From NCBI GenBank assembly GCA_001662655.1, contig KV460258.1: 29,155 nucleotides of DNA. One strand, 5' to 3'. Every line of letters starts with the position of its first letter. Position 1 is the stretch's first letter. Below, piece after piece: positions 5,563-29,155 of the stretch. This DNA is from Pseudogymnoascus verrucosus (Eukaryota). The translations under genes were made by a program, and so were the position numbers. The notes under the pieces are model-generated. The model ran no database searches, had not been told where the DNA came from, and worked only from the letters and a program-made list of their open reading frames with translations.

Positions 5563-8500
5563 CTATAGGTAGGGCATCCACAGAGCATCGGCCTGGGCCA
5601 GGTTCATAGGATTGACCGCCTTGGCCACCAAGTCAATGATTGTCTGGTTCGCAGGTAGCATTCCCATCGGCGCCTGGGCTAAACTCAAAGTCCTCTTGAC
5701 AATGATCTCGCTGTTAACTTGAACCGTCTCCCTCAGCTGACCTTCTCCCATTGATCCTGCGCGGTGGCTACTGGTGAACCAGAAGATCATCTCGTCTCGC
5801 ACGAACAAGCTCAACTGTTGCTCCAGGTCAAACTCGGGTTCCGTAAGGCATCGCGCAATGGCCATAATGGCGCAAGTGAAGATGCCCTCGGTGGCCATGG
5901 GACCCATGAGAGTTTGTATATTGGGCGTAAGGCGGAACGGCACTGGCTCCGGGTTGTGGAAGGTAGGCTTGCCAGCTGCCATCGAGGCAATCAGTTCCGA
6001 ACCCCAGATATTTCCTGTGGCTCGCGCGATATTGAGCTTGTGTGGGTAACGGCCGTTCATGAACAAAATGTAAGTCATGAATGTTAACGCGGCATATTGG
6101 TATGAAAAGTGCCTGCGGAACAACCAGAAGTCGGCATATGCTGGATACGAAGCTTTGAAGAAGTCGAGAGCAATCGTATGTGGAACCCATTTGTCTTGAA
6201 TAGCTGAAAATATTTCCATGCGGGCATTGAGAGCGTGATCAGGGTGTTTCTAATTAGTATGTTAGCATTGGAAGTCATCGAGACTAGAATTTTGGAACTT
6301 ACGGCTGTCTTCGCCTCGGCCAGGATCCTTAATTTGTCCATCGTAAACAGAATTGGATCGTCCTTTAGCAGTCCACTCTTACGGCAATGGTCCTCGAAGA
6401 TCCCTTGCAGGGATATATACGACGTATCATCTTGAACCATCCGAATATGGGGCGCAAGCGGAATCATGAGCGGCAGATGGAAATTGAGATTTCGCCGACG
6501 TGACTCTTTGCGCTTGCTCAGTGTGGCATTGAAATGCCTGAAGAGTTGCAATATCCGCTCTTCACGTCTGCAATGCCTAGCAGCAGGATGCTGCACAGCG
6601 AAGGGATGAACGGATCCATCGTGGCCACGAATTTTGAGGCGACGATGGCAGACACCAATGGCGCGCACCAAGTCAACGTCGGGGAGGAACCGATCAATTC
6701 GGATAAAATCTTGGTTCTTATCCTTATGCTGCAAATATTGACCAGGAACTTCCACCTCATCGAATTTACCGAATCGGAACTCGCTGAGATGTGTGCTGTA
6801 AGTCTCGAGATTTTGATGCAACGGGCGCCGATCCAGCTTGGACTCGAACTTGTCGCGCCAACGGCGGAGCTTTTGGATGTACTCGTGCATTGTTGGCTTT
6901 TTATCAACGAAATCAGCTTCAAACGACTTTCGAATGTGGGCTGGCAGAATAGTCTCCGCAAACCGGGTGATGTTCGTTTCGGTGGCGGATGGGAGCTTCA
7001 CATCGAGAGCGTAAGAGTTAGGCATGCGAGTGACATATGAAAGGCCGTCGTTGAGAAGTGCCACGATGAGCCTGTATGCATCCTCATCGGGTGGGCACTT
7101 GAAATGCTTCTGGATTTGGTCGACCATTGTTTCCATAGAAAGTGCCAAAAGTGGGAATGCTGTTTTGAGCACCAAAAGTATCTCTTCTGTGTGTTCCCAC
7201 GGTGGCTTCTTAGTGGGTGGAGCAGCGGCTGGGGCTGGTGTGGTCGATGGCTGCCCTTGCACATTTGGGACGCTTGTGGCAGCATTCGGATTGTTGCTGG
7301 CTTCAGCTGGCTCGGGCTTAACTGCACTGCCCTCTACATTAAGGGCGGCATTAACAACGCCATTGGCAGTCCCAGGTCTTGATCCAGCCGAACTGTCTGG
7401 CCTCACTGAAGGCGTCACCGAACGTGCCTGGGTCGGCGAGCCGCTTTGCTTGATAGCATCTCCCACTGGAGTTTGTCTAGCATTTTGCTTGGCAGCTCTT
7501 GCGTTCCTCTCGCGTAGCTCTTTGCTCTCCTGGCTCTTCTTGATTGCAAGCATATCCTCACGGTTGGTACGCAGTTGGAAGTAAAGCGCCTGTGGGTAAG
7601 ATTTGGCGATCTTTGCGAGAAGGCTGTGTGCTTTCGCTGCTTCCTTGTGCCCGAGTCCAGTCAGTAATTGAGGAATGAACGTTATCCAATACCAAACTGG
7701 TGTTTCGCCCTTATATGCGTCGAAAGTTTCTGCTAGCGTTCCGTTCGCATCGTCGAGACTCAGTAGCCAGAGTATGCGAGTAAGCAACTTCCGAGACTTT
7801 GCATTCTTGAACAAACCGGCAGCTTCAAGGTAGCAGCTAAGGGCGTTCTTGGCAAACTCATAATTTGTTGGGGTTTCCTTAAATTGTCGGTCATTGTAGT
7901 AGCCCCATTCGGCCCATGCCTTCGATAGCTTGATATCAAAGAATAACGCCATGCCAAAGGCCTCTTCAGCCTCGCTCTTCTGGCTAAGCTTCTCGAGGAA
8001 CATTCCCTTCAGAGTGTAGAACTCTGCTTTCTGTTGCGGGCCGAAATAGTTCAGATTGGTGTTGTTAATGACATCTAATCCCTGGTTCAATTCGTTCGAA
8101 TCTTGGTAATGACACTTCGCTTGTTCTCTCAGTTTCAAGAAAGCTTCTTGGATCTCAATGTTTGGCAGTGTATAGATCCTGCTAAGTTGGCTGATACAAA
8201 CTTCTGGTAGTTGATGCTTCCTTGCGACATGGGCGAAACGATTTATGATCCAAGCGGTCTCGTGGTATCCACGGTAGGCAAACGAGGCGCCATTGGCGTT
8301 TTGCCCTTGTTGGGGCAGAAGGGCCAAGTAGGTCGTATTGATGAGTCCAAATATGTGCTGGCGCCAAGTAACAAGGTCTTGCCATGCCATGATATCATCC
8401 CATACGTTCGGGAGGCGATCTCGCCAGGTACCAAGTAGTAACTTCAACTCTCCAGATTTGACATCTAGGTTTGCTTGGGTCGTTTGTGCTAGGCTTTGGC

Positions 8501-11500
8501 ATATGACGCTAGCATCGTGAAGCTCAACAAGCTGCTGGAAGTTCTGAAGTAGAGGAATATGTGCATTGGTAATCCGCTTAGGAAGCTGGTGCCATTTGCG
8601 GATTGACAATTGTATAGCCTCATCGCATACCTTGCTGAAATCTGCCGTGGTTTCTGTTTTGTTGTGGAACTTGAGAAGAGACATGAAGGCCTGGAAGAAC
8701 GTTCGGCGAGGAGTTGGCGCATCCATGACGCCTTTGATAATCGCATCGAGCTGATCCCGAGGTTCTGGGGTCTGCCATGTTTCCGGGTTTCTCCAGGCAC
8801 ATTCAAGGAGGAGATCCTGAAAGTTCTCGTGCTTGGCGAAGTCTTGTAAGATATCCCACTGTTGCAGTTTCTGAGCGCATAGCACCCAGTGGTCTTCCCA
8901 GAGCATGTATTCTCCGGATGAGAAAGGAATCGCACCAGTTCTTGCCTTAATTTGAGCGGCCTCGTACATCTTTTGCGCGCTATCCCACATCCCGTTTTGT
9001 TCATAGGAAAGCGCAGCATTTGTCTCGACAAACTGGCAGCGGCGACGCCACGTTCCATAAAAGAGATCATCCTCTTGCAAACCAGCATACAATTCTACCA
9101 ATGCGTCGAGGTTGCTTTCCCTAACAACTGCACTGTCTGTCGTGGGCTTGATGGCGGCATTCTCCAGTTGAACAAGCGCAGTATACCATGCATCGTAAGT
9201 TTTCGCCTCAAACTTCATGACATGGGGTGGTATCTTGCAATCCGGCCAGGACCTAGCTGCTCCCTCCAGAAGAGACTGGACAACGTTTGGTCTTTTGTCA
9301 ATTTGGCGGGAGTGATAATCCTTTGTCAGGAGAGACACCATTCCACGCTCCAACTCTCCGCGTTCATCCTTGGCCATTGCTGACCAGTAAATTGGGAACA
9401 GAGAAACCCAAATTTCATGCGCCGTATCTGGATCTAAGTGCTGGAGCTGAGTCAAGGGTTCCATGATGTCGCGGACTGTGACGTCGCCTAGCTCTCGTAC
9501 GAACCGGCGATGACCTGCTATAAACTCATCATATTTGTCGTCATCCATCAAATTGGGCTGTCGTGTATCCTTGGCATAGTTGCCAAATAGCACCGACGCT
9601 GGAATGGTCTTGAAATCCTCGTGGTGCAGTTGAATTGGCTTGTTCATCTCAACCGCCCCAACAAGCAATTGCGACGCCTGGGCAAGCCAGTAAGAATCTG
9701 CCAAAGTATCCCAGTTCTGCGATGTGATGATATATGTGAGTCTTGCGCTAGCTGTTGGCGATTGGCTCTTGTCAAATATAGCCATGAATCTATTTCGCAT
9801 GTCGACGTCTTGAGCTCTTGTACCGATCAAAAATGCATGTTCCATGCGCACCGTTAATTCGGTGCGAGTAATCTTGGGATCCTCGTAGATTCGTATTACT
9901 AGTTCTAAAAACTTGATGAGCAAAGTCTGGTCTTGTCTGTTCTCGAATGTCAACATCTTATGTAGCACGGCGGTCTTTTCTTTGAGTGTTGGCCATGATC
10001 CTTCAGATTTGAACACCCAGCCATCAACCATGTCGAGGATCTTCAGACACAATTCGTTGCTTTGAGACTTCTCAACAAGGGTTGCGAGGACGCTAAGGAA
10101 CGGCCTGCGGTAGTCGCCAAGCACTTCCATTCGCATGGACATAATGTCAATAGCTTTGAGCATTAGGCCAGTCTGTATCTTGAGATCGTACTTATTCATG
10201 AGGCCAGTGGGCTCATGTTCTTGTTGCACTGCAGCTGCTACAGACTGCGTGACAGCTGCCGCGTAATGAGCGACATGCTCCTTTGCAAGTTTCGTCTGGA
10301 GAGCTCTCATTATCGCACTTATAATCCCTTGATCCATCTCAGAGGGCTTTCTCTGCGCGAGAGTCCAGAGGATGTTGATTCCGGAGTTGTAATTTCCAGA
10401 CGACAAATCCTCTGTTGCAGTGGTAGATAAGAATGTTATGATTTCAGACGTTGAAGCCTCGGCCTCGCCGTCTGCATCGGCATCTTCCATCTGTACATCG
10501 TCTGGGACGGCATCGAGAATGGCTTTCAGCAGAGGCTTTAGCGGGCGCCCATCGTCTCTATTCTGGCAGCTCGAATGAAGGCAGTCTTGAATCTCAGCAT
10601 TGTCAGACTTGATAGATTTTTCCAAGATGCGCTGCAGATTCGACATGTTCTTCTGAATCCAGTCATCAGTTTTGGTGTTAACTATGACTCTTACAACTTG
10701 CAGCGTGTTGATCATGTTCGTAATAAACTTGTCGTCTGGTTTCTCCTTGTCAGTTCCCCCGCTAGCAAGGGCTGCTGTTGTGCGGTCACTTGCAAGCATG
10801 ATATCGGTGACGTTGGGGAAAAGATCAACGTCTAGATCGCTCCAATACTGTGGTTGTAATAGGTTCTTCAGCAGTGAAATAGATTTCGTGATCATCTCAA
10901 TTGATGAGGATGGAGGGGCCGGAATTTGGTACAATGCTGGTTCTCGTTGCTTTGCTGACTGGAGTGGGTATCTCTCTGGCAGCGCTGCGATGAACTCCAC
11001 CAGATATTTGATCATCTTCTGGCGGTACACCAATGGGATCTGATATTCAGCTCTGTCTGGTGGAGAAGAACGAGCCTTTTGCGGCGAGGCCTTCTGCGAC
11101 GACGGGGATGAGGATTCGGCAACTGGGGTACTCTCTATCTTCCTCTTCTTCGCGTTTGGAGACTCTGACATCAAGCGTGCAGGACTGGTTGCCTTGTCCT
11201 CTACTCGGGTCTTCTCCCATTCCCAAATCAAATTCATAAGCTGGAGGACTAGACGTCGGCTCTCATTCGAAGCGGTTGTTGGTTGAGCGATCTTCCTAAA
11301 TGAGGAGATAATGGAAATAACAAACTTGTCTCGGGATTCATAGAAGAGCTCGTCGTGCTTTACAAGGAAATGGAGGATGCTCGTCATCTGCTGCACATTC
11401 TGGCCCTCCTCGGCCAGGATTCTGCGTGCGCCCGAGGCCCAGATAGGATTTCGGTCTCCCGGTGCAGAGTTGCATCTCTTCCGAAGAACAGGAGCCAATA

Positions 11501-14500
11501 ACTCGAGGGTCTGCGTTACCAAGGTCCTACCCTCGTTTTGGTTTGTTCGTAATAATGAGAGGTAGACTTGGACAACTATTTTCGCAGGTGTTTCATAGTG
11601 AGCAATGAAATACCCGATGACCACATAAGCTGCGTGTTTATTAATCACGTCTTCGAGTCTGATATATGTCCAGCCGAATTTGATGATATCTTTTCGCGCA
11701 TCCTGCAGGATACCATGATAATGCTTTACAAGCATGGCCGAGAGTTGAAGTACCTCCATTCGCGTGTGGTCAATGCCAGGTTGAGTAAGGTCTTCGTTTG
11801 GATCCCCAAGACTGGCACGCCATATCTTGGTGTGGATGGACTCAATGACGGCTCTATCAATAAGGCGCGGGGATTTCATCGAGCCAGTCCGCGGCCATGT
11901 TCGCATTACATCCTTGGCAACAATCGGGTTGACAATGTTGTGAAGCAGGAAGGCTTTGGTTTTCTGGGATGCTGTCTTGCTTGCGTAAACGTCCAGAGAG
12001 CGCAGTACAATCGATTTCCAGTAATCGATGGATTCGTTGCAAATGATGTTCTTGTAAATATACGAGAAGAACTGTTGGCTGGGCTTGAAATCTCCGCAGG
12101 TCACCGAATCTACAAGCCCAAAAAGCGCGTCCAGGTCTTTCGGGTGAATCTCGAGGAACTTTGTGAATATAATCATCAACTGCTCTCCGGCTTGCTCGGC
12201 AGCCAGACGAAGATTTGAGGGGAGTGAATAGTTGCGAAGGCGCTGTTCAAGATTCTTGCCAACCAAGCGGAACCACATGAGATTTTCCTTCTTCTCCATC
12301 CATGCTTCTGTGCCTGGATATTTGCATACCGAATGCATCACATTGATAGCGTTGATGACAGCAGCATATCGTGTCTCTTTATTCTCCGCGCCCATATCGC
12401 CGCAATTCTTGATCAGCATGTCCACGCTGTTTACAACAACACTTCTGAGTGGTGCACTGTCGGGATCTTCCAAGAGTTGCGCCAGGAACCTGCCATACTT
12501 TTGCTCTTCAATTTTGCCAAGCAACATCATCCATACTTCATTTGGATAACGGTTGAGATACTTATATAACGGTGCCCTAAATGGGCTGTATCTTGTTCGT
12601 CGGAGCTTATCTTCAAGATCTAGGACGGTTTCCACTAAACGTTCCTTGAAATGTTCGGCGGCAGGTGGGAGGAGATGGAAGATATTGAAGACAGCAGCGA
12701 TAATCTTCATCTGGTCGTTCTGTTCAACCAAAGTAAAAGAGATTCGTTGAAGTGCATTAGGCTCTGCAAGAACTTTGATGTGGTCTAAAAGCCTTGATCC
12801 AATCTCAACCTTGAAGTACGTTGTGAGGAGTTGGAGCAGCCTTGCCAGACCATCTAACCCATGAGTGCTTAGCCTTCTAGGATCTTGGAGATTTGCAAGG
12901 ACAGGTCGCAGGCCATTCTGGAGAAGATCTTTCGGCAGTTTGGTGGTCTGAGAAAGGACAACTTTCAAGGCATCGTTCGCAGCCTCGATAGTCTGGCTTG
13001 ATTCGGAATACAGACATTTGAAGAACACCGACACAATCTTCGTTCTTGTGGCGTTGTTCGGCCCCTTTTGAAACTCTTCAAAGCCCATTGCAGTGGTGAG
13101 CATCTTAATACAGGCGACCCTAAGACTGATAATATGTTCATGGGTTCGCTGCTCCGCCGGCTTTCCCGCGAGTGACTCGTCGGCAGCATCAGCAAGGGCC
13201 AGAGACTCCATCAAAAGACGATTCAGAACATCATCGAATTGGACAAAGTCGGGCTTCAGGCCCATACAGTATGTCACCGCATCGATGTATCCAATCTGTA
13301 TGGCGAAGGGCAAAGCTCGCAATGGCTTGCTGTAGATTGGGTTCAAGATACCGTCCCTTTGAGGTTCTAATAGCTCCCAGACTTCCGCACCTATCGTTTC
13401 TGATATAGTTGTCAAAGCTTTCTGTGACGTTTCGCGAACATGTCGGTTGAGATGCGACAGTCCGGAGCCGAAGAGTTGGCACAGATGTGGTAGTCGAGAT
13501 GTAAACTGGGGACGAGGCACTCCTGGTGGAAGAGGGGCCGGTGGCAAAATATCCTTCTTCGTAGAGTTTTTGGTCACTCTCTTCAACAGTATTTCGAGGG
13601 TCTCTTGTGCCCCGATCCGCGTCTTCGCGGGCAGATCTTGCGGCATATCTTTGATGACATATAACAATGACTTGACATAGTCAAATTGCCTGTCGCTAAT
13701 CCAGCTATCGCCAATATCAAACTTTGTTACCAAGAGGTTAATACCGAGGCTACCGCCAGCCTTGGTAAACCATTCCTCTTCGTAGCAACTATGACAAAAC
13801 ACGTTGCTGAGGTGTGTAAAAAATGACAATCGACCGACTTGGGCGGAAGAACCAAAGATGATCGCAGTTGAGTCGAAAACCTCTCTCAGTGCTCGCTCAG
13901 CTGCCTCGCGCACAAGGATATTGTCTGATGATAGCGATTCGGTAATGGCATCAGCAAGTACTCTGCTGTCTATAACAACAGGCCCTTCGCCAGCTTTGAT
14001 GTCGAATGGCTGGCGTTTGAGCTTAAACTCTGCCAATGCATTTCCGACTTCCAAAATAGTTAGATGTCTGCAAACACCAAGTAGTGTTGCTAATGCCTCA
14101 TCCTTCAGATCCTGGATTGATACGGAAAACATGAGAGCCTTGATAAGCCTCTTTAGCACCTCTTGCTCCAAGTCTTTCTTCATAACAGACCTCTGCCGGT
14201 CGTTGACCTCCAGGGCGGAAAAATCGGCATTGCTGTCTCTCGCAAGAAGGTCCTGAGCTTGCAAACGCAGGAGGCGCCCGAAATCTTCTGGGAGGTTGTC
14301 GTATCCGATTCTAAGCTTAGTCTGTGCCTTGACAAAGTGGAGCGCTTGCTTTTTGTAATATACATCGGATTTTTTGGCAGCTGCTCCTTTTGGAATTTCC
14401 ATGAGCTTTCGAATGGCCAAGTCTATGCCAATCTCCACAGGGAAAGCCCTATCTTTCTTGGATCCGTTAAGCTTCAGGTCGAAACTAGCTCTATCGTCAG

Positions 14501-17397
14501 AGTATTGCTGAAAGGTAAGTGCTGGTGCACCAGTCATGAATTTCCGATTCCGGCCGCCGAGTTTTCCGAGAATGCGCATGGTAGTATGCGCATGGAAGTG
14601 GCTGTATGGATTAGGACGCAGATGGTCGAAGAGTGCGGTCATAACTTCCTCGATCACGGGTGCCATAATAGGATCTAGATAGTCCGCCGTCAAATTGTCA
14701 ACGCAAAGCTCGAGTGTCCGTAGGCCCTGCCCCACAAGGTCTGAGCCCGCCCGCAATGCAACCACGAGAGGCCGCATCAAGTAGCTCAAGTGCGGTAACA
14801 GGTTACTTAACCGCGCGGGTACTGTCAAACATAATTCAACATACAAATCTCGGTCTGCTGGCTTCCGAGCTGCCATAAGCAAATTATTGAGTACTTCCAG
14901 AAGCATCTCAAGAAGTGGCAGAATCTGCTTATATAGATGCTCAAACTTCCCTCCGCCGATACTGCGGAACAGAGACCTTAGAAGAAGGAAGTAATTCATC
15001 GGCTCCTCGGCGGTAGTGGAGAGCTCAATAGATTTGGTGACGATATCGAGCACGTGAGGTAGTAGGACCTGCTCGTTTTGGCTTGAGAACAACGTCACAG
15101 CCATGAATGCAAGCTTGAACAGTCGGAGCAAGATCGAAGATTTCTTGATGTCCGCAGTTCCGACTTGGTCGATTCTATCCATTAGGAATCGAAGTAACAT
15201 TCCTGCAAAGCTTGGTGAGGTGGCCTCGCTGGCGAGGAAGTATTGCGGGACATGTAAGAGAGCGGTATGCTCAAAAATCATGTTGTAGAGGTTAGGTATC
15301 TCTTGGTGGAAGACCTCATGGAACGTAGCAGGGTCAATGCAATGGAAGACTGTGGCAAACGTCTCGAGAAGGTCCTTCTCTTCCTTGCTGCTAGACGTCA
15401 TATAATGGTTGGCCATAAACTCAACTGGTGATGAGTATTGTGATTCCGCTGCCGGCTTCTCAATCTCGTAATATCTGAACACATACGCGCCCTCTCGGAA
15501 GAGCTTGATGATGACTTGAACCTCTTCCGCTGAAAAGCCATACGAGACTTCTTGCCAATGTGGCGTTGCGTTAGCTGGGTCAACGGGAGACCCAATATTA
15601 CAGGCTTTCAGCTGGTAAAACATGTTCTTGAGGCCATTCATAAGATTCTTGAACAGAAATTTGTTGTCTACAACAGGGTCTGCTCCGCGGTCGCGCGGAT
15701 TTGACGTCTTGATAGGTGTAGCAGTGAATATGTCGATTTCGTCCCAATCCGGCGGATGCTCCAAGTCCGCAAGGTAGTTGTCTGGCGCAGCTTCATCTTT
15801 CTGCTGTGCATAAGTTTTTGACAGCTTGATGGCATTCGGATATTGACGATTCATCGCTTCGAATTTGTCGCCAATGGCGTTCAGAATCATGATTAGGTAG
15901 TGCCGCGCATCCGCCTTGTTCTCCATTCGGGCAATGCATTCGGCCATGTTCAACAGCAACTTAGCACTCATAGTCTGAAAGCTGGTCCCTGGAAAGCTAT
16001 CCATCAAATTCTTCGTGTACACCTCCACTGTCTTGCGGATTTGATTCGAGTCTAGCTGGTCGCGAACGTGGTGAATTAGGTCCGCAAGCATGCTGTATGC
16101 GAGGGGCCGCATGGTATCATAGACAGTAAGGCCGTCTCCAATGAGAGTCCTCTCATCTAGAAGCTCATCGATTTTCGTTAAAAATATCTTCCTGAAGTTG
16201 AAGTTGATGATGTGTCTTATAGCAACCAGCAACTCCTTCCTTGCTGCAGACTTCTCTCGTGGGCAATCTTGCAGTAATCTAACAACTATTCCAGGCAGTG
16301 TCTGGAGGAATTCTTGCAATTGTTGGGAATAGACTCGCAGAAGGTATGCGAGAAAGCTCATAGTCTTAACTTGGGCTGTGATAAACTCTCCAAAGGCGGC
16401 CCTGTTCCGAATATTAGGGCTAACTCCGGTGAAAATTTGGCCTTTGGCTTTGGCCTCCGCATGTGCTTCTTCTTGAGGTTTGGCTTGCAGCATGAGCACA
16501 ACCTTTATCAGTGGTACAAATTTCTTCACATTCGCAGGAACAGTTTGGCGGTAGACTTGGAATATAGAAACAACAATAATCGGACACTCCGCCAGAACTT
16601 TGAACGACTGCATGCCTTTTGACAAGGGGCGTGTTTGCTGTTGCGGATCGGCACCAAGGTCTGAAACGGATGCCACCGGAGAGCCTGGCCTTGGAGATTG
16701 GAAATTCTGGGAGCTTCCAGGAGTTGACGGTACAACAGCATTCGTCGCCGATGGGCTCGGGTTGTCCAATTGCTCGTGGACTACGGCGGGCATGTCATCG
16801 AACATCTCTTGTATCAGGCTGAGGAAGTCTTGGACCTGGTTGTTCCCCGGTTGTTGGAGGACTTTTGTCTGATGGCGCATAATGTCCATTATCGTCTTGA
16901 CGCAAAGAATGGCATTGTCTTCATTTTCGACCCTGACCAGTCCTATGAGGACATTCACCACATCTACAGTATATGGTTCGAACGGTTCAGGCGGACTCGT
17001 GGGTAGCCGGTGTAGAGTTTCCAGGACACAATTTCGCAGTTTCTATTTCCGTTAGAGCTGACTGCTATCCGTGCGACATGTGTGGTTTGGCCATTCTCAT
17101 ACCTGCTCTGGATTTGTACTTATGAAGACAGGCTGGCCCTTCAGCAACTGAATGAATATGGGGACCAGCTTTTTCAGGAATGTGGGATAAGCTTGTGGTG
17201 TGGTATAATGTTCGAGGCTGTCGCGCAGCTGCGTCGCAGCATCCACCCGGAGTTTAACATCTAGAGATATCAATTAGAACAATTAAATTCAGTGGCATGG
17301 AAGCCAGCTGCAATTAAATACAGCTACCAGAGGATGGCATACCGAGATCTGGATTGCTGAGCCTCTGCACCACGATGTCAATAAGATTGGTCGACAT
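5563..17397 (-). CDS. TRA1: Transcription-associated protein Tra1 (TRRAP; PIKK pseudokinase subunit of SAGA/NuA4), ~3879 aa. Exons 17397-17343, 17260-17103, 17042-6303, 6249-5563
   Basis: 3625-aa ORF with HEAT/FAT/PI3K-like regions ('[36 protein letters not shown]', '[12 protein letters not shown]') and FATC end 'DALWMPYL*'. Three canonical introns (17342-17261, 17102-17043, 6302-6250) give one continuous frame of 11,640 nt. Confidence 0.97.
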
Positions 17398-27239: not shown

Positions 27240-28832
27240 ATGTCCAACGAAGTCAAAGAAGTCGACGCCGTCGTAGTCGGCGGCGGCTTCGGCGGCACCC
27301 GCCTCCTCAACCTCCTCAAGAACAAAGTCAAGCTCCATTCCGTCGTCGGCATCGAAAAAGGCGAATCCCTCGGCGGAACATGGTACTGGAACCAATACCC
27401 CGGCGCGCAAACCGACACCGAGAGCTGGGTGTACCGCTTCTCGGACGAGCGCGAGCCGCCGAAGTGGAATACAAGATACCTGAAGGGTGAAGCGCTGAGG
27501 GAGCAGATCGTCGAGTCGGCGAGGAAGAATGGGACGTTTGAGGATTTTATATTCGGGACGGAGGTTAGGTCTGCGCATTATGATGAGGGGTCGAAGAGGT
27601 GGGAGATTTCGACGGATAGGGGGCATAAGTTCTCTGCTACGTACTTCGTTACGGCGGTGGGGATTTTGAATAATCCTAATATCCCTACATACCCAGGCAT
27701 AGACACATTCAAAGGCCAAGCCTTCCACTCAGCAAGATGGCCCAAGGGACTAGACGTCACCGGCAAGCGCGTGGCTGTGATCGGGACCGGGCCATCAGGA
27801 AGCCAGATCACAGGCGCTATCAACAAGATCGTCAAACAACTCACCGTCTTCCAGCAGCGCGCGCAGTACATCACACCTGTCAACAATCGCCCTGTGGATG
27901 AGATTGAGCGCGCGGAGATTTATAAAAACTACGATACCATCTGGGACACGGTCTTCCAATCCCTCTTCGCAATGGGGTTCGTCGAGTCCAAGAAATCCGC
28001 CCTCGAAGCCTCGGAAGAAGAGCGTCGCGAAGTCTACGAGCGCGTCTGGAATAAGGGAGGTGGATTCCGGTTTTTCTTCGAGACCTTCGGCGACCTAGGG
28101 ACGAGCATCGAAGCGAACGAGACGGCGGCGGCGTTTGTACGCAGCAAGATCGCGGAGATTGTTAAGGATCCCGAGACGGCGAAACTTCTTCAGCCGACGG
28201 GTCATTACGGAGGACGCCCGCTTTGTGCGGAGGGGTATTATGAGGCCTTCGCTGAGCCAAACGTCTCGCTGGTTGATATCGCCAGCAATCCCGTTTCGAA
28301 GCTCACGGAGACGGGGATAGAGTTGCAAGATGGGAAACAGCTCGAGTTTGATGTTATTATCTTCGCTACTGGGTTTGATAGCGTGGATGGCTCATACCGC
28401 AACGTTGATATTACGGGGCGCGAGGGGGTTAAGCTGAACGACGTGTGGAAAAACGGCGCAACATCCCTCTACGGCGTCAGCGTCACCCAATTCCCCAACC
28501 TCTTCCTCGTCAGCGGCCCCGGCGGCCCTTTCTCCAACATCCCCCCCTCCATCGAAGTCCAGGGCGATTTCATCACTAAACTGATCCTCGAGTCCCAAGC
28601 GCGGGGCACGAAGACGGTAGAGGCGGACAAGGAGGCGCAGGGGAAGTGGGACGAGACGGTGCAGGCGATCTCGGCGGTGACGATCTTTAGTAAGGTGAAG
28701 AGCTGGGTGCAGAATGATAATGTGGAGGGGAAGACGAAGTATAGTGCGTTCTTTTTGGCGGGGTTGGGGAATTATATCGCTAAGTTGGAGGAGGAGACGG
28801 GGGGGAAGTATCCGTCGTTTAGGTTTGAGTAG
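27240..28832 (+). CDS. Type I Baeyer-Villiger monooxygenase (cyclohexanone monooxygenase-like FAD/NADPH flavoprotein), 530 aa
   Basis: Two Rossmann motifs (VVGGGFGG; VIGTGPSG), 'GGTWYWNQYPGAQTD', BVMO fingerprint FxGxxxHxxxWP ('FKGQAFHSARWP'), 'DVIIFATGF', 'FPNLF'. Intronless. Confidence 0.95.
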   Translation: MSNEVKEVDAVVVGGGFGGTRLLNLLKNKVKLHSVVGIEKGESLGGTWYWNQYPGAQTDTESWVYRFSDEREPPKWNTRYLKGEALREQIVESARKNGTFEDFIFGTEVRSAHYDEGSKRWEISTDRGHKFSATYFVTAVGILNNPNIPTYPGIDTFKGQAFHSARWPKGLDVTGKRVAVIGTGPSGSQITGAINKIVKQLTVFQQRAQYITPVNNRPVDEIERAEIYKNYDTIWDTVFQSLFAMGFVESKKSALEASEEERREVYERVWNKGGGFRFFFETFGDLGTSIEANETAAAFVRSKIAEIVKDPETAKLLQPTGHYGGRPLCAEGYYEAFAEPNVSLVDIASNPVSKLTETGIELQDGKQLEFDVIIFATGFDSVDGSYRNVDITGREGVKLNDVWKNGATSLYGVSVTQFPNLFLVSGPGGPFSNIPPSIEVQGDFITKLILESQARGTKTVEADKEAQGKWDETVQAISAVTIFSKVKSWVQNDNVEGKTKYSAFFLAGLGNYIAKLEEETGGKYPSFRFE

Positions 28833-28835
28833 GTG

Positions 28836-28857
28836 GGATGGGATGGGATGGGATGGG
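28836..28857. repeat. (GGGAT)n pentanucleotide microsatellite just after the monooxygenase stop codon
   Basis: GGGATGGGATGGGATGGGATGG read directly. Confidence 0.8.
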
Positions 28858-28979
28858 TGGGGGGAGGTTGCCTGTTGCAGTGTAGTTAGCGTTTTGGGGG
28901 GTTGAGGGTCGCAACTAACTGTTCATTGTTAATTGATAATATAGCCCCAAGTCTGCGCCTCAAAGGAGCAAAAATGAAC

Positions 28980-28997
28980 AAAAAAAAATGGCAAAAA
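28980..28997 (-). terminator. RNA polymerase III oligo(T) terminator of the 5S gene
   Basis: On the minus strand the 5S 3' end GTATGT is followed immediately by TTTTTGCCATTTTTTTTT. Confidence 0.75.
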
Positions 28998-29060
28998 ACA
29001 TACAACAGTGGGTATTCGCTGGTGGTCACCCACCCAACTACTAATCCACCGATCTCAAGC
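28998..29060 (-). rRNA. 5S rRNA gene, 3' half only (~63 nt), 5'-truncated or interrupted
   Basis: Minus strand reads GCTTGAGATCGGTGGATTAGTAGTTGGGTGGGTGACCACCAGCGAATACCCACTGTTGTATGT, the characteristic Pezizomycotina 5S 3' half. The expected 5' half (ACATACGACCATA...CCCGTCCGCTC) is absent from 29061-29155. Confidence 0.9.
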
Positions 29061-29155
29061 AAATATCTAGATAATACTTAAATCGGTGCCATCCGGCCTA
29101 GTGGGTGAGCCTCGCCGCCCTTGCCCCTTATTTTGTGATCGCGACCACCCCGACC

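Follow-up and report, generated by a model that had tools for sequence, protein, structure and literature searches.

A split 5S rRNA gene at a contig end of Pseudogymnoascus verrucosus probably marks the captain-side junction of a dead 5S-targeting Starship

In a published survey, 5S rDNA accounts for 23% of the 222 curated Starship sites. Voyager from Macrophomina phaseolina (10.1101/2021.12.13.472469) and Osiris from Aspergillus fumigatus (10.1101/2024.06.28.601215) are described as residing always in a dispersed 5S gene and breaking it, and the same arrangement is found at the locus analysed here. Enterprise, as presented in PMC11162782, carries a DUF3435 captain near its left end and has most of its insertion sites in 5S rDNA; the 5S target and, probably, the captain position recur at the present locus. 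For Hephaestus, a circular intermediate and captain-dependent integration have been shown (10.64898/2026.09.21.753150).

The stretch of DNA that we analysed (the window; 29,155 nucleotides, G000:C53:186001-215155) ends where its contig, C53, ends. We read this end as the attL-like, captain-side junction of a dead 5S-targeting Enterprise-type Starship, with a probability of roughly 0.9; our confidence in the family label, and in the joining of C53 to a second contig, C27, is lower than our confidence in the identity of the element. The features of the window that bear on this reading are as follows.

27243..28832, plus strand: host flank gene for a flavin monooxygenase, outside the element (ORF; Pfam FMO-like, E=7e-15; same flank in runs X2-X4)
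28980..28996, minus strand: T-runs behind the 5S gene that resemble a Pol III terminator, host flank (sequence)
28997..29060, minus strand: 3' half of a 5S rRNA gene, nt 57-120 (identity to the genome's intact 5S; Rfam RF00001)
29056..29060, minus strand: crossover core and 5-bp direct repeat GCTTG, 5S nt 57-61 (half-gene boundaries; same core in back-to-back junctions)
29061..29155, plus strand: left terminus of the element, truncated where the contig stops; the right terminus is its imperfect inverted repeat (multi-copy; alignment to a natural right end; identity with the C27 end)
29084..29110, plus strand: conserved subterminal motif of left ends (40 genome matches at up to 3 mismatches; reversed-pattern control 0)

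The monooxygenase is presumably Baeyer-Villiger-like, and a GGGAT/G-rich short repeat lies directly past its stop codon (28825-28869). Elsewhere in the window, a 3652-aa reading frame on the minus strand (6084-17042) is an ordinary core gene, which we take to encode a Tra1/TRRAP kinase-like protein.

The preliminary description had reported an undecayed 5S 3' half with its T-run terminator, a loss of similarity near 29060 with about 56 nt of the gene absent, and unrelated sequence from 29061 onward, and these observations hold. Positions 28997-29060 are identical to the genome's intact 5S at 64 of 64 positions, the T-runs occupy 28980-28996, identity ceases exactly at 29060 with 56 nt missing, and what follows is unrelated to 5S, though it is multi-copy, that is, not unique. 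T-rich runs similar to those at 28980-28996 stand behind the 30 intact 5S copies compared. The half gene was recovered as RF00001 at 26.2 bits (E=0.0028) in an Rfam e-value scan of the window; Rfam at the gathering score gave no match in the window and missed it, and ARAGORN returned nothing there. A mir-268 match in the e-value scan (E=3.8) was attributed to chance, and no further 5S pieces or element ends were found elsewhere in the window. The palindrome TATCTAGATA does lie at 29064-29073, as described, but it carries no weight as a functional site, being present in only 3 of the 40 left-end matches, two of which are this locus.

A genome search with positions 28960-29155 gave 103 candidates, of which 40 matches were scored; 31 of these extend 50 nt or more beyond the junction and nine end exactly at 29060. 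Many copies of the left terminus continue into GGTGAG repeats and a TATA-like box. When the left end in the window was aligned to a natural right end, the score of 67 was reached by 0 of 2000 shuffles, and imperfect terminal inverted repeats are present at the left and right termini of the element family. That right terminus defines a second family of junctions, in which 5S nt 1-61 are followed by a terminus different from the one in the window. Because the 3' halves start at nt 57 (or at nt 54-55 in a single end subtype, where the match is extended by chance) and the 5' halves end at nt 61, GCTTG is a 5-bp direct repeat; it was derived from the family-wide ends and from paired remnants, the right end of the window copy being missing. 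Mimicry of the 5S target by the right arm is no more than an impression by eye, positional identity to 5S nt 62-81 being poor unless a 1-nt shift is allowed.

A motif census of the genome returned 40 matches to the left end, 73 to the right end and 45 to the unbroken core, with reversed-pattern controls at 0. Copies of the left terminus beside half-5S genes, proposed earlier as something to look for, are thus numerous: 33 of the 40 left ends adjoin a 5S 3' part (C53 and C27 probably being one locus counted twice among them), six stand back-to-back with a right end and without 5S, and one adjoins an N run. The 73 right ends comprise 53 that adjoin a 5S 5' part, four that lie behind a 5S 3' end and T-run (among them C6:534647, placed there and not with the back-to-back class after sequence inspection), seven that are back-to-back (six clear and one decayed) and nine without adjacent 5S. 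One locus, C53:121638, is counted both among the 53 right ends and among the 45 core matches; at C53:121638-121736, 5S nt 1-80 are fused directly to the right-end motif in place of the usual 20-nt arm. The site is fixed and internal to 5S and is used in one orientation, no reverse arrangement occurring in the classified left or right ends.

Rfam identified at least 43 full-length 5S genes among 47 scored candidates, so that, by the census of halves, broken 5S genes are about as numerous as intact ones or more so, a count to be read with the possibility that some halves were copied together with their flanks. Six 5S copies have an altered first core base (C27:165221, C27:165629, C31:66, C31:271, C44:66931 and C59:183584), a variant that is possibly less open to insertion; the same altered base also occurs at one left junction (C66:59237). 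At two loci, L121:1314-1561 (C57) and L122:1580-1801 (C15), the same spacer of about 120 nt lies between a 3' piece and a 5' half of 5S. Flanks are common to several intact 5S genes (L060/L061, L071/L080 and L056/L078), and these 5S copies seem to have moved together with their flanks, perhaps inside elements.

For 17 of the 40 left ends, a right end facing inward lies no more than 16 kb away; uniform placement, a model that ignores 5S clustering, would give 0.8. After one of the 17 was dropped, its mate being shared, the inner arms of the remaining 16 pairs were found to fit their own partners better than shuffled partners (mean 12.2 versus 10.2, p=0.0003), and end subtypes that co-vary within pairs are candidate captain binding arms. 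The paired remnants measure 3.0-15.1 kb; a near-full captain pseudogene is found in one of them and captain stubs in two others. Their interiors contain long ORFs that resemble NTPase/NLR, chitinase, oxidoreductase and transporter genes. Captainless remnants of 3-15 kb on C5, C17, C8, C63, C40 and C52 have ORFs of up to 924 aa between stops.

These sizes and captain counts are what would be seen if the family had spread mainly as small non-autonomous elements of 3-15 kb, with two ends and a few genes, that were moved in trans, as opposed to giant Starships that shrank later. That account, which also draws on the size of the smallest of 348 catalogued elements (15,020 bp) and on a miniature Hephaestus that moves in trans (10.64898/2026.09.21.753150), is nevertheless unlikely: a mobile mini-element should recur, whereas no interior is shared among the paired remnants besides captain pieces, and the captain stubs are truncated at differing points, as expected of deletion decay.

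The captain assigned to the window copy lies on C27, whose end reproduces the last 177 nt of the window exactly, with a single mismatch adjacent to where C27 itself stops. Only C53 and C27 are 100% identical to the window end, and both are contig ends; the next best copy of the full terminus reaches 92%. The overlap, which takes in 17 nt of flank beyond the half 5S gene, suggests, without proving it, that the two ends are one locus split by an assembly break. Were they instead two separate insertions with identical ends, the window copy might be an orphan end lacking the C27 captain. The one mismatch would then find an explanation, similar T-runs are often common to 5S terminators, and the captain has been lost from most left ends in this genome; the exclusive identity of these two contig ends and the reach of the overlap into the flank tell against this possibility, to which we give a low probability.

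On C27, nine further GGTGAG repeats and a TATA-like box follow the overlap, the captain ATG stands 353 nt from the junction, and the DUF3435 domain is matched downstream.

C27:384087-384497: match to DUF3435 (PF11917)

If the contigs are joined as proposed, the captain, now a pseudogene, would be the first gene of the element, facing inward from the left end, and a DUF3435 gene near the element end had been named beforehand as something to seek. The C27 captain is 68-83% identical to KFY94199.1 over six pieces, with 363 identical residues; 72 of the differences need only C>T/G>A changes, 6 need the reverse and 17 are of other kinds, and 15 of 15 stops fit C>T/G>A. Judged on this bias, irrespective of dinucleotide context, the captain appears to have been killed by RIP-like damage, and no intact captain of this type is present among 20 matches in the genome. 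On C25 and C52, too, left ends are followed by homologous, near-full captain pseudogenes. Pfam gave no match for three short read-through pieces of the C27 captain (one in the wrong frame); the read-through piece of the C52 captain matched DUF3435 in Pfam and, used as a query, picked out of 141 candidates 6 proteins with DUF3435, belonging to Pseudogymnoascus and Claussenomyces. The HXXR catalytic motif (clade 2) is HAIR in five of six captain homologues and HAIC in the sixth, and it reads YAIR in the C27 copy and HAIC in the C52 copy, consistent with C>T decay. More distant DUF3435 types, most with stops, occur on C44, C26, C20, C61, C46, C18, C6, C24 and C15; the 10-kb stretches inspected near these loci contain no 5S half of the 57-61 type.

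The next 150,000 bases of C27 (385,925 in all) yielded neither a right end nor a 5S 5' half, the sole right-end motif of this contig faces the wrong way, and a 5S 5' part at C53:121549-121736 was rejected as the mate of the window end, facing away from it. The matching 5' half predicted in the preliminary description therefore exists at the level of the genome, as 5' halves with the second terminus and the 5-bp repeat, but the mate of this particular copy was not found. The proposal in that description of a terminus or scar of a Starship-like, 5S-targeting element gains support from the junction family, the repeat and the captain. What stands is the identity of the element; the captain, full of stops, speaks against a live element, and nothing supports a giant size for this copy.

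A simple fragment of a 5S pseudogene, or a SINE derived from 5S, has one point in its favour, namely that the half gene alone falls under the Rfam gathering score. It is exceedingly improbable: the breakpoint is fixed in dozens of copies, the two end families overlap by 5 bp, and the inverted ends have an adjacent recombinase. The multi-copy junction and captain refute the simple fragment, and the facing of both 5S halves toward element ends contradicts a SINE, since 5S-derived SINEs retain the 5S 5' part as their head.

Under the preferred reading of a captain-side Starship junction, the DUF3435 tyrosine recombinase would join a circle (left end - GCTTG - right end) to 5S at nt 57-61, leaving the 5' half and right end on one side and the left end and 3' half on the other. 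Insertion would always take one orientation, such that the captain runs antisense to 5S and points away from the 3' half. Later, the captain would have been killed by RIP-like mutation, and the right end removed by deletion or rearrangement; this order of events is the one we infer. By analogy with Hephaestus, a circular intermediate and captain-dependent integration may be supposed for this lineage as well, and indirect support comes from back-to-back junctions at the following loci.

C2:296601-296694, C3:131574-131667 and C33:136481-136574: left-core-right junctions without 5S, chromosomal
C39:230444-230537, C64:2787-2880 and C71:1800-1893: left-core-right junctions without 5S, chromosomal
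L219:4001-4300: left-core-right junction without 5S, chromosomal

These attP-like junctions have the form of a circle junction. In some of them the two arms belong to different subtypes, which is what distinct elements inserted in tandem would produce, and on C33 the order is 3' half - element - junction - next left end. The back-to-back junctions are best read as head-to-tail insertion into the end of an earlier element.

The element family is also represented outside this genome. Metagenome contigs contain 22 exact matches to the right-end motif, a figure that counts some loci once in each of two data sets. A 5S 5' part precedes 21 of the 22, and at the remaining one, a back-to-back junction, the captain that follows is likewise full of stops. 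In each of runs X2-X4, the window flank is represented by one contig, which differs at 23-44 letters and stops within the 5S 3' end; loose ends past 29060 in these runs bear the same kind of terminus, which places the family in relatives. Run X1, possibly the source of the DNA analysed here, was kept out of the independent evidence, as were runs with small shares, and the X1 pieces listed did not decide whether C53 and C27 join. A search of the metagenomes with the flank pattern, directed at the empty site, gave 0 matches, and no empty site was seen in X2-X4, where the contigs all break within the 5S 3' end.

A further arrangement is seen where right ends lie directly behind a 5S 3' end and T-run.

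C17:224812-225005: right end directly behind 5S 3' end and T-run
C22:445202-445389: right end directly behind 5S 3' end and T-run
C6:549838-550016: right end directly behind 5S 3' end and T-run
C6:534647-534812: right end directly behind 5S 3' end and T-run
C1:1197784-1198010: right end directly behind 5S 3' end and T-run

Three intact 5S genes (on C17, C22 and C6) with unrelated 5' flanks share a related junction of T-run and right end, 86-92% identical over 265-337 nt including the gene, and at two of these loci a left end and a second 3' half follow 5 and 15 kb further on. At C6:534647 the order is left end - 3' half - T-run - right end, which is how the circle junction of a 5S-restoring variant would be arranged. 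On C1, the T-run of a fourth of the 30 intact 5S genes checked is followed by a right end that is different and partly deleted, in a rearranged setting. The right end of such a variant would carry 5S nt 57-120 and the terminator and rebuild the gene on insertion; this is unproven, the pattern could have come instead from ectopic exchange between 5S copies or from gene-conversion repair, and none of the 22 right-end matches in metagenomes is of the restoring type. The combined proposition that this lineage broke about as many 5S genes at the core as are intact, stacks head-to-tail and spawned a 5S-restoring variant is accordingly put forward tentatively, as possible though on balance doubtful.

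The Enterprise (fam06) label of the captain is one that we infer from its homologues. In Table S4 of PMC11162782, KFY94199.1 is assigned to fam06, that is, Enterprise, as is a cluster mate, and the cluster representative KFY57135.1 is given as family 'n.d.'; two other captain homologues are absent from the tables of that source examined. The captains of fam06 described there begin about 330-400 nt from the repeat, compared with 353 here, and AAGC/GCTT is found within the repeats given for some Aspergillus fam06 elements, repeats that may denote the same position in 5S. Given these repeats and the similar captain distance, the site at 5S nt 57-61 may already be known. The repeat is 5 bp here and 6-16 bp in the 5S-targeting families of the same source, and, in contrast to Enterprise as described there, the element here is dead and its paired remnants measure 3-15 kb. 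At least nine Pseudogymnoascus rows in Table S8 of PMC11162782 list 0 elements, so the lineage seems to have catalogued captains and no described element; a published description of this Pseudogymnoascus lineage was not found in the literature searched, mainly open-access papers.

Voyager, according to 10.1101/2021.12.13.472469, cuts 20 bp from the 5' end of the gene and is present in 0-4 copies per genome, whereas here the gene is cut at nt 57-61 and an element end is joined to 53 or more 5' halves. The joined right-core-left junction described for Hephaestus in 10.64898/2026.09.21.753150 has six counterparts in this genome; there it is a rare extrachromosomal read, and here it is chromosomal.

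A Starship junction that splits 5S is known biology, and the very high load of broken 5S genes is what this genome adds. Bacterial ICEs and prophages carry the 3' end of their tRNA target and restore the gene on insertion. The four right ends that follow a 5S 3' end and T-run, in three cases with the whole gene intact, invite comparison with these elements; the junction in the window, unlike theirs, disrupts 5S, and restoration is a candidate reading for other loci. A target-restoring variant, if true, would contradict the published view that all 5S insertions disrupt the gene. The genome presents a fossil series of one lineage with all four site types of a site-specific recombination cycle, together with co-varying end subtypes, broken 5S genes in numbers comparable to the intact ones, and remnants that have long ORFs and lack a captain. 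It offers a handy system for mapping captain recognition of 5S, the turnover of dispersed 5S genes and the stranding of cargo.
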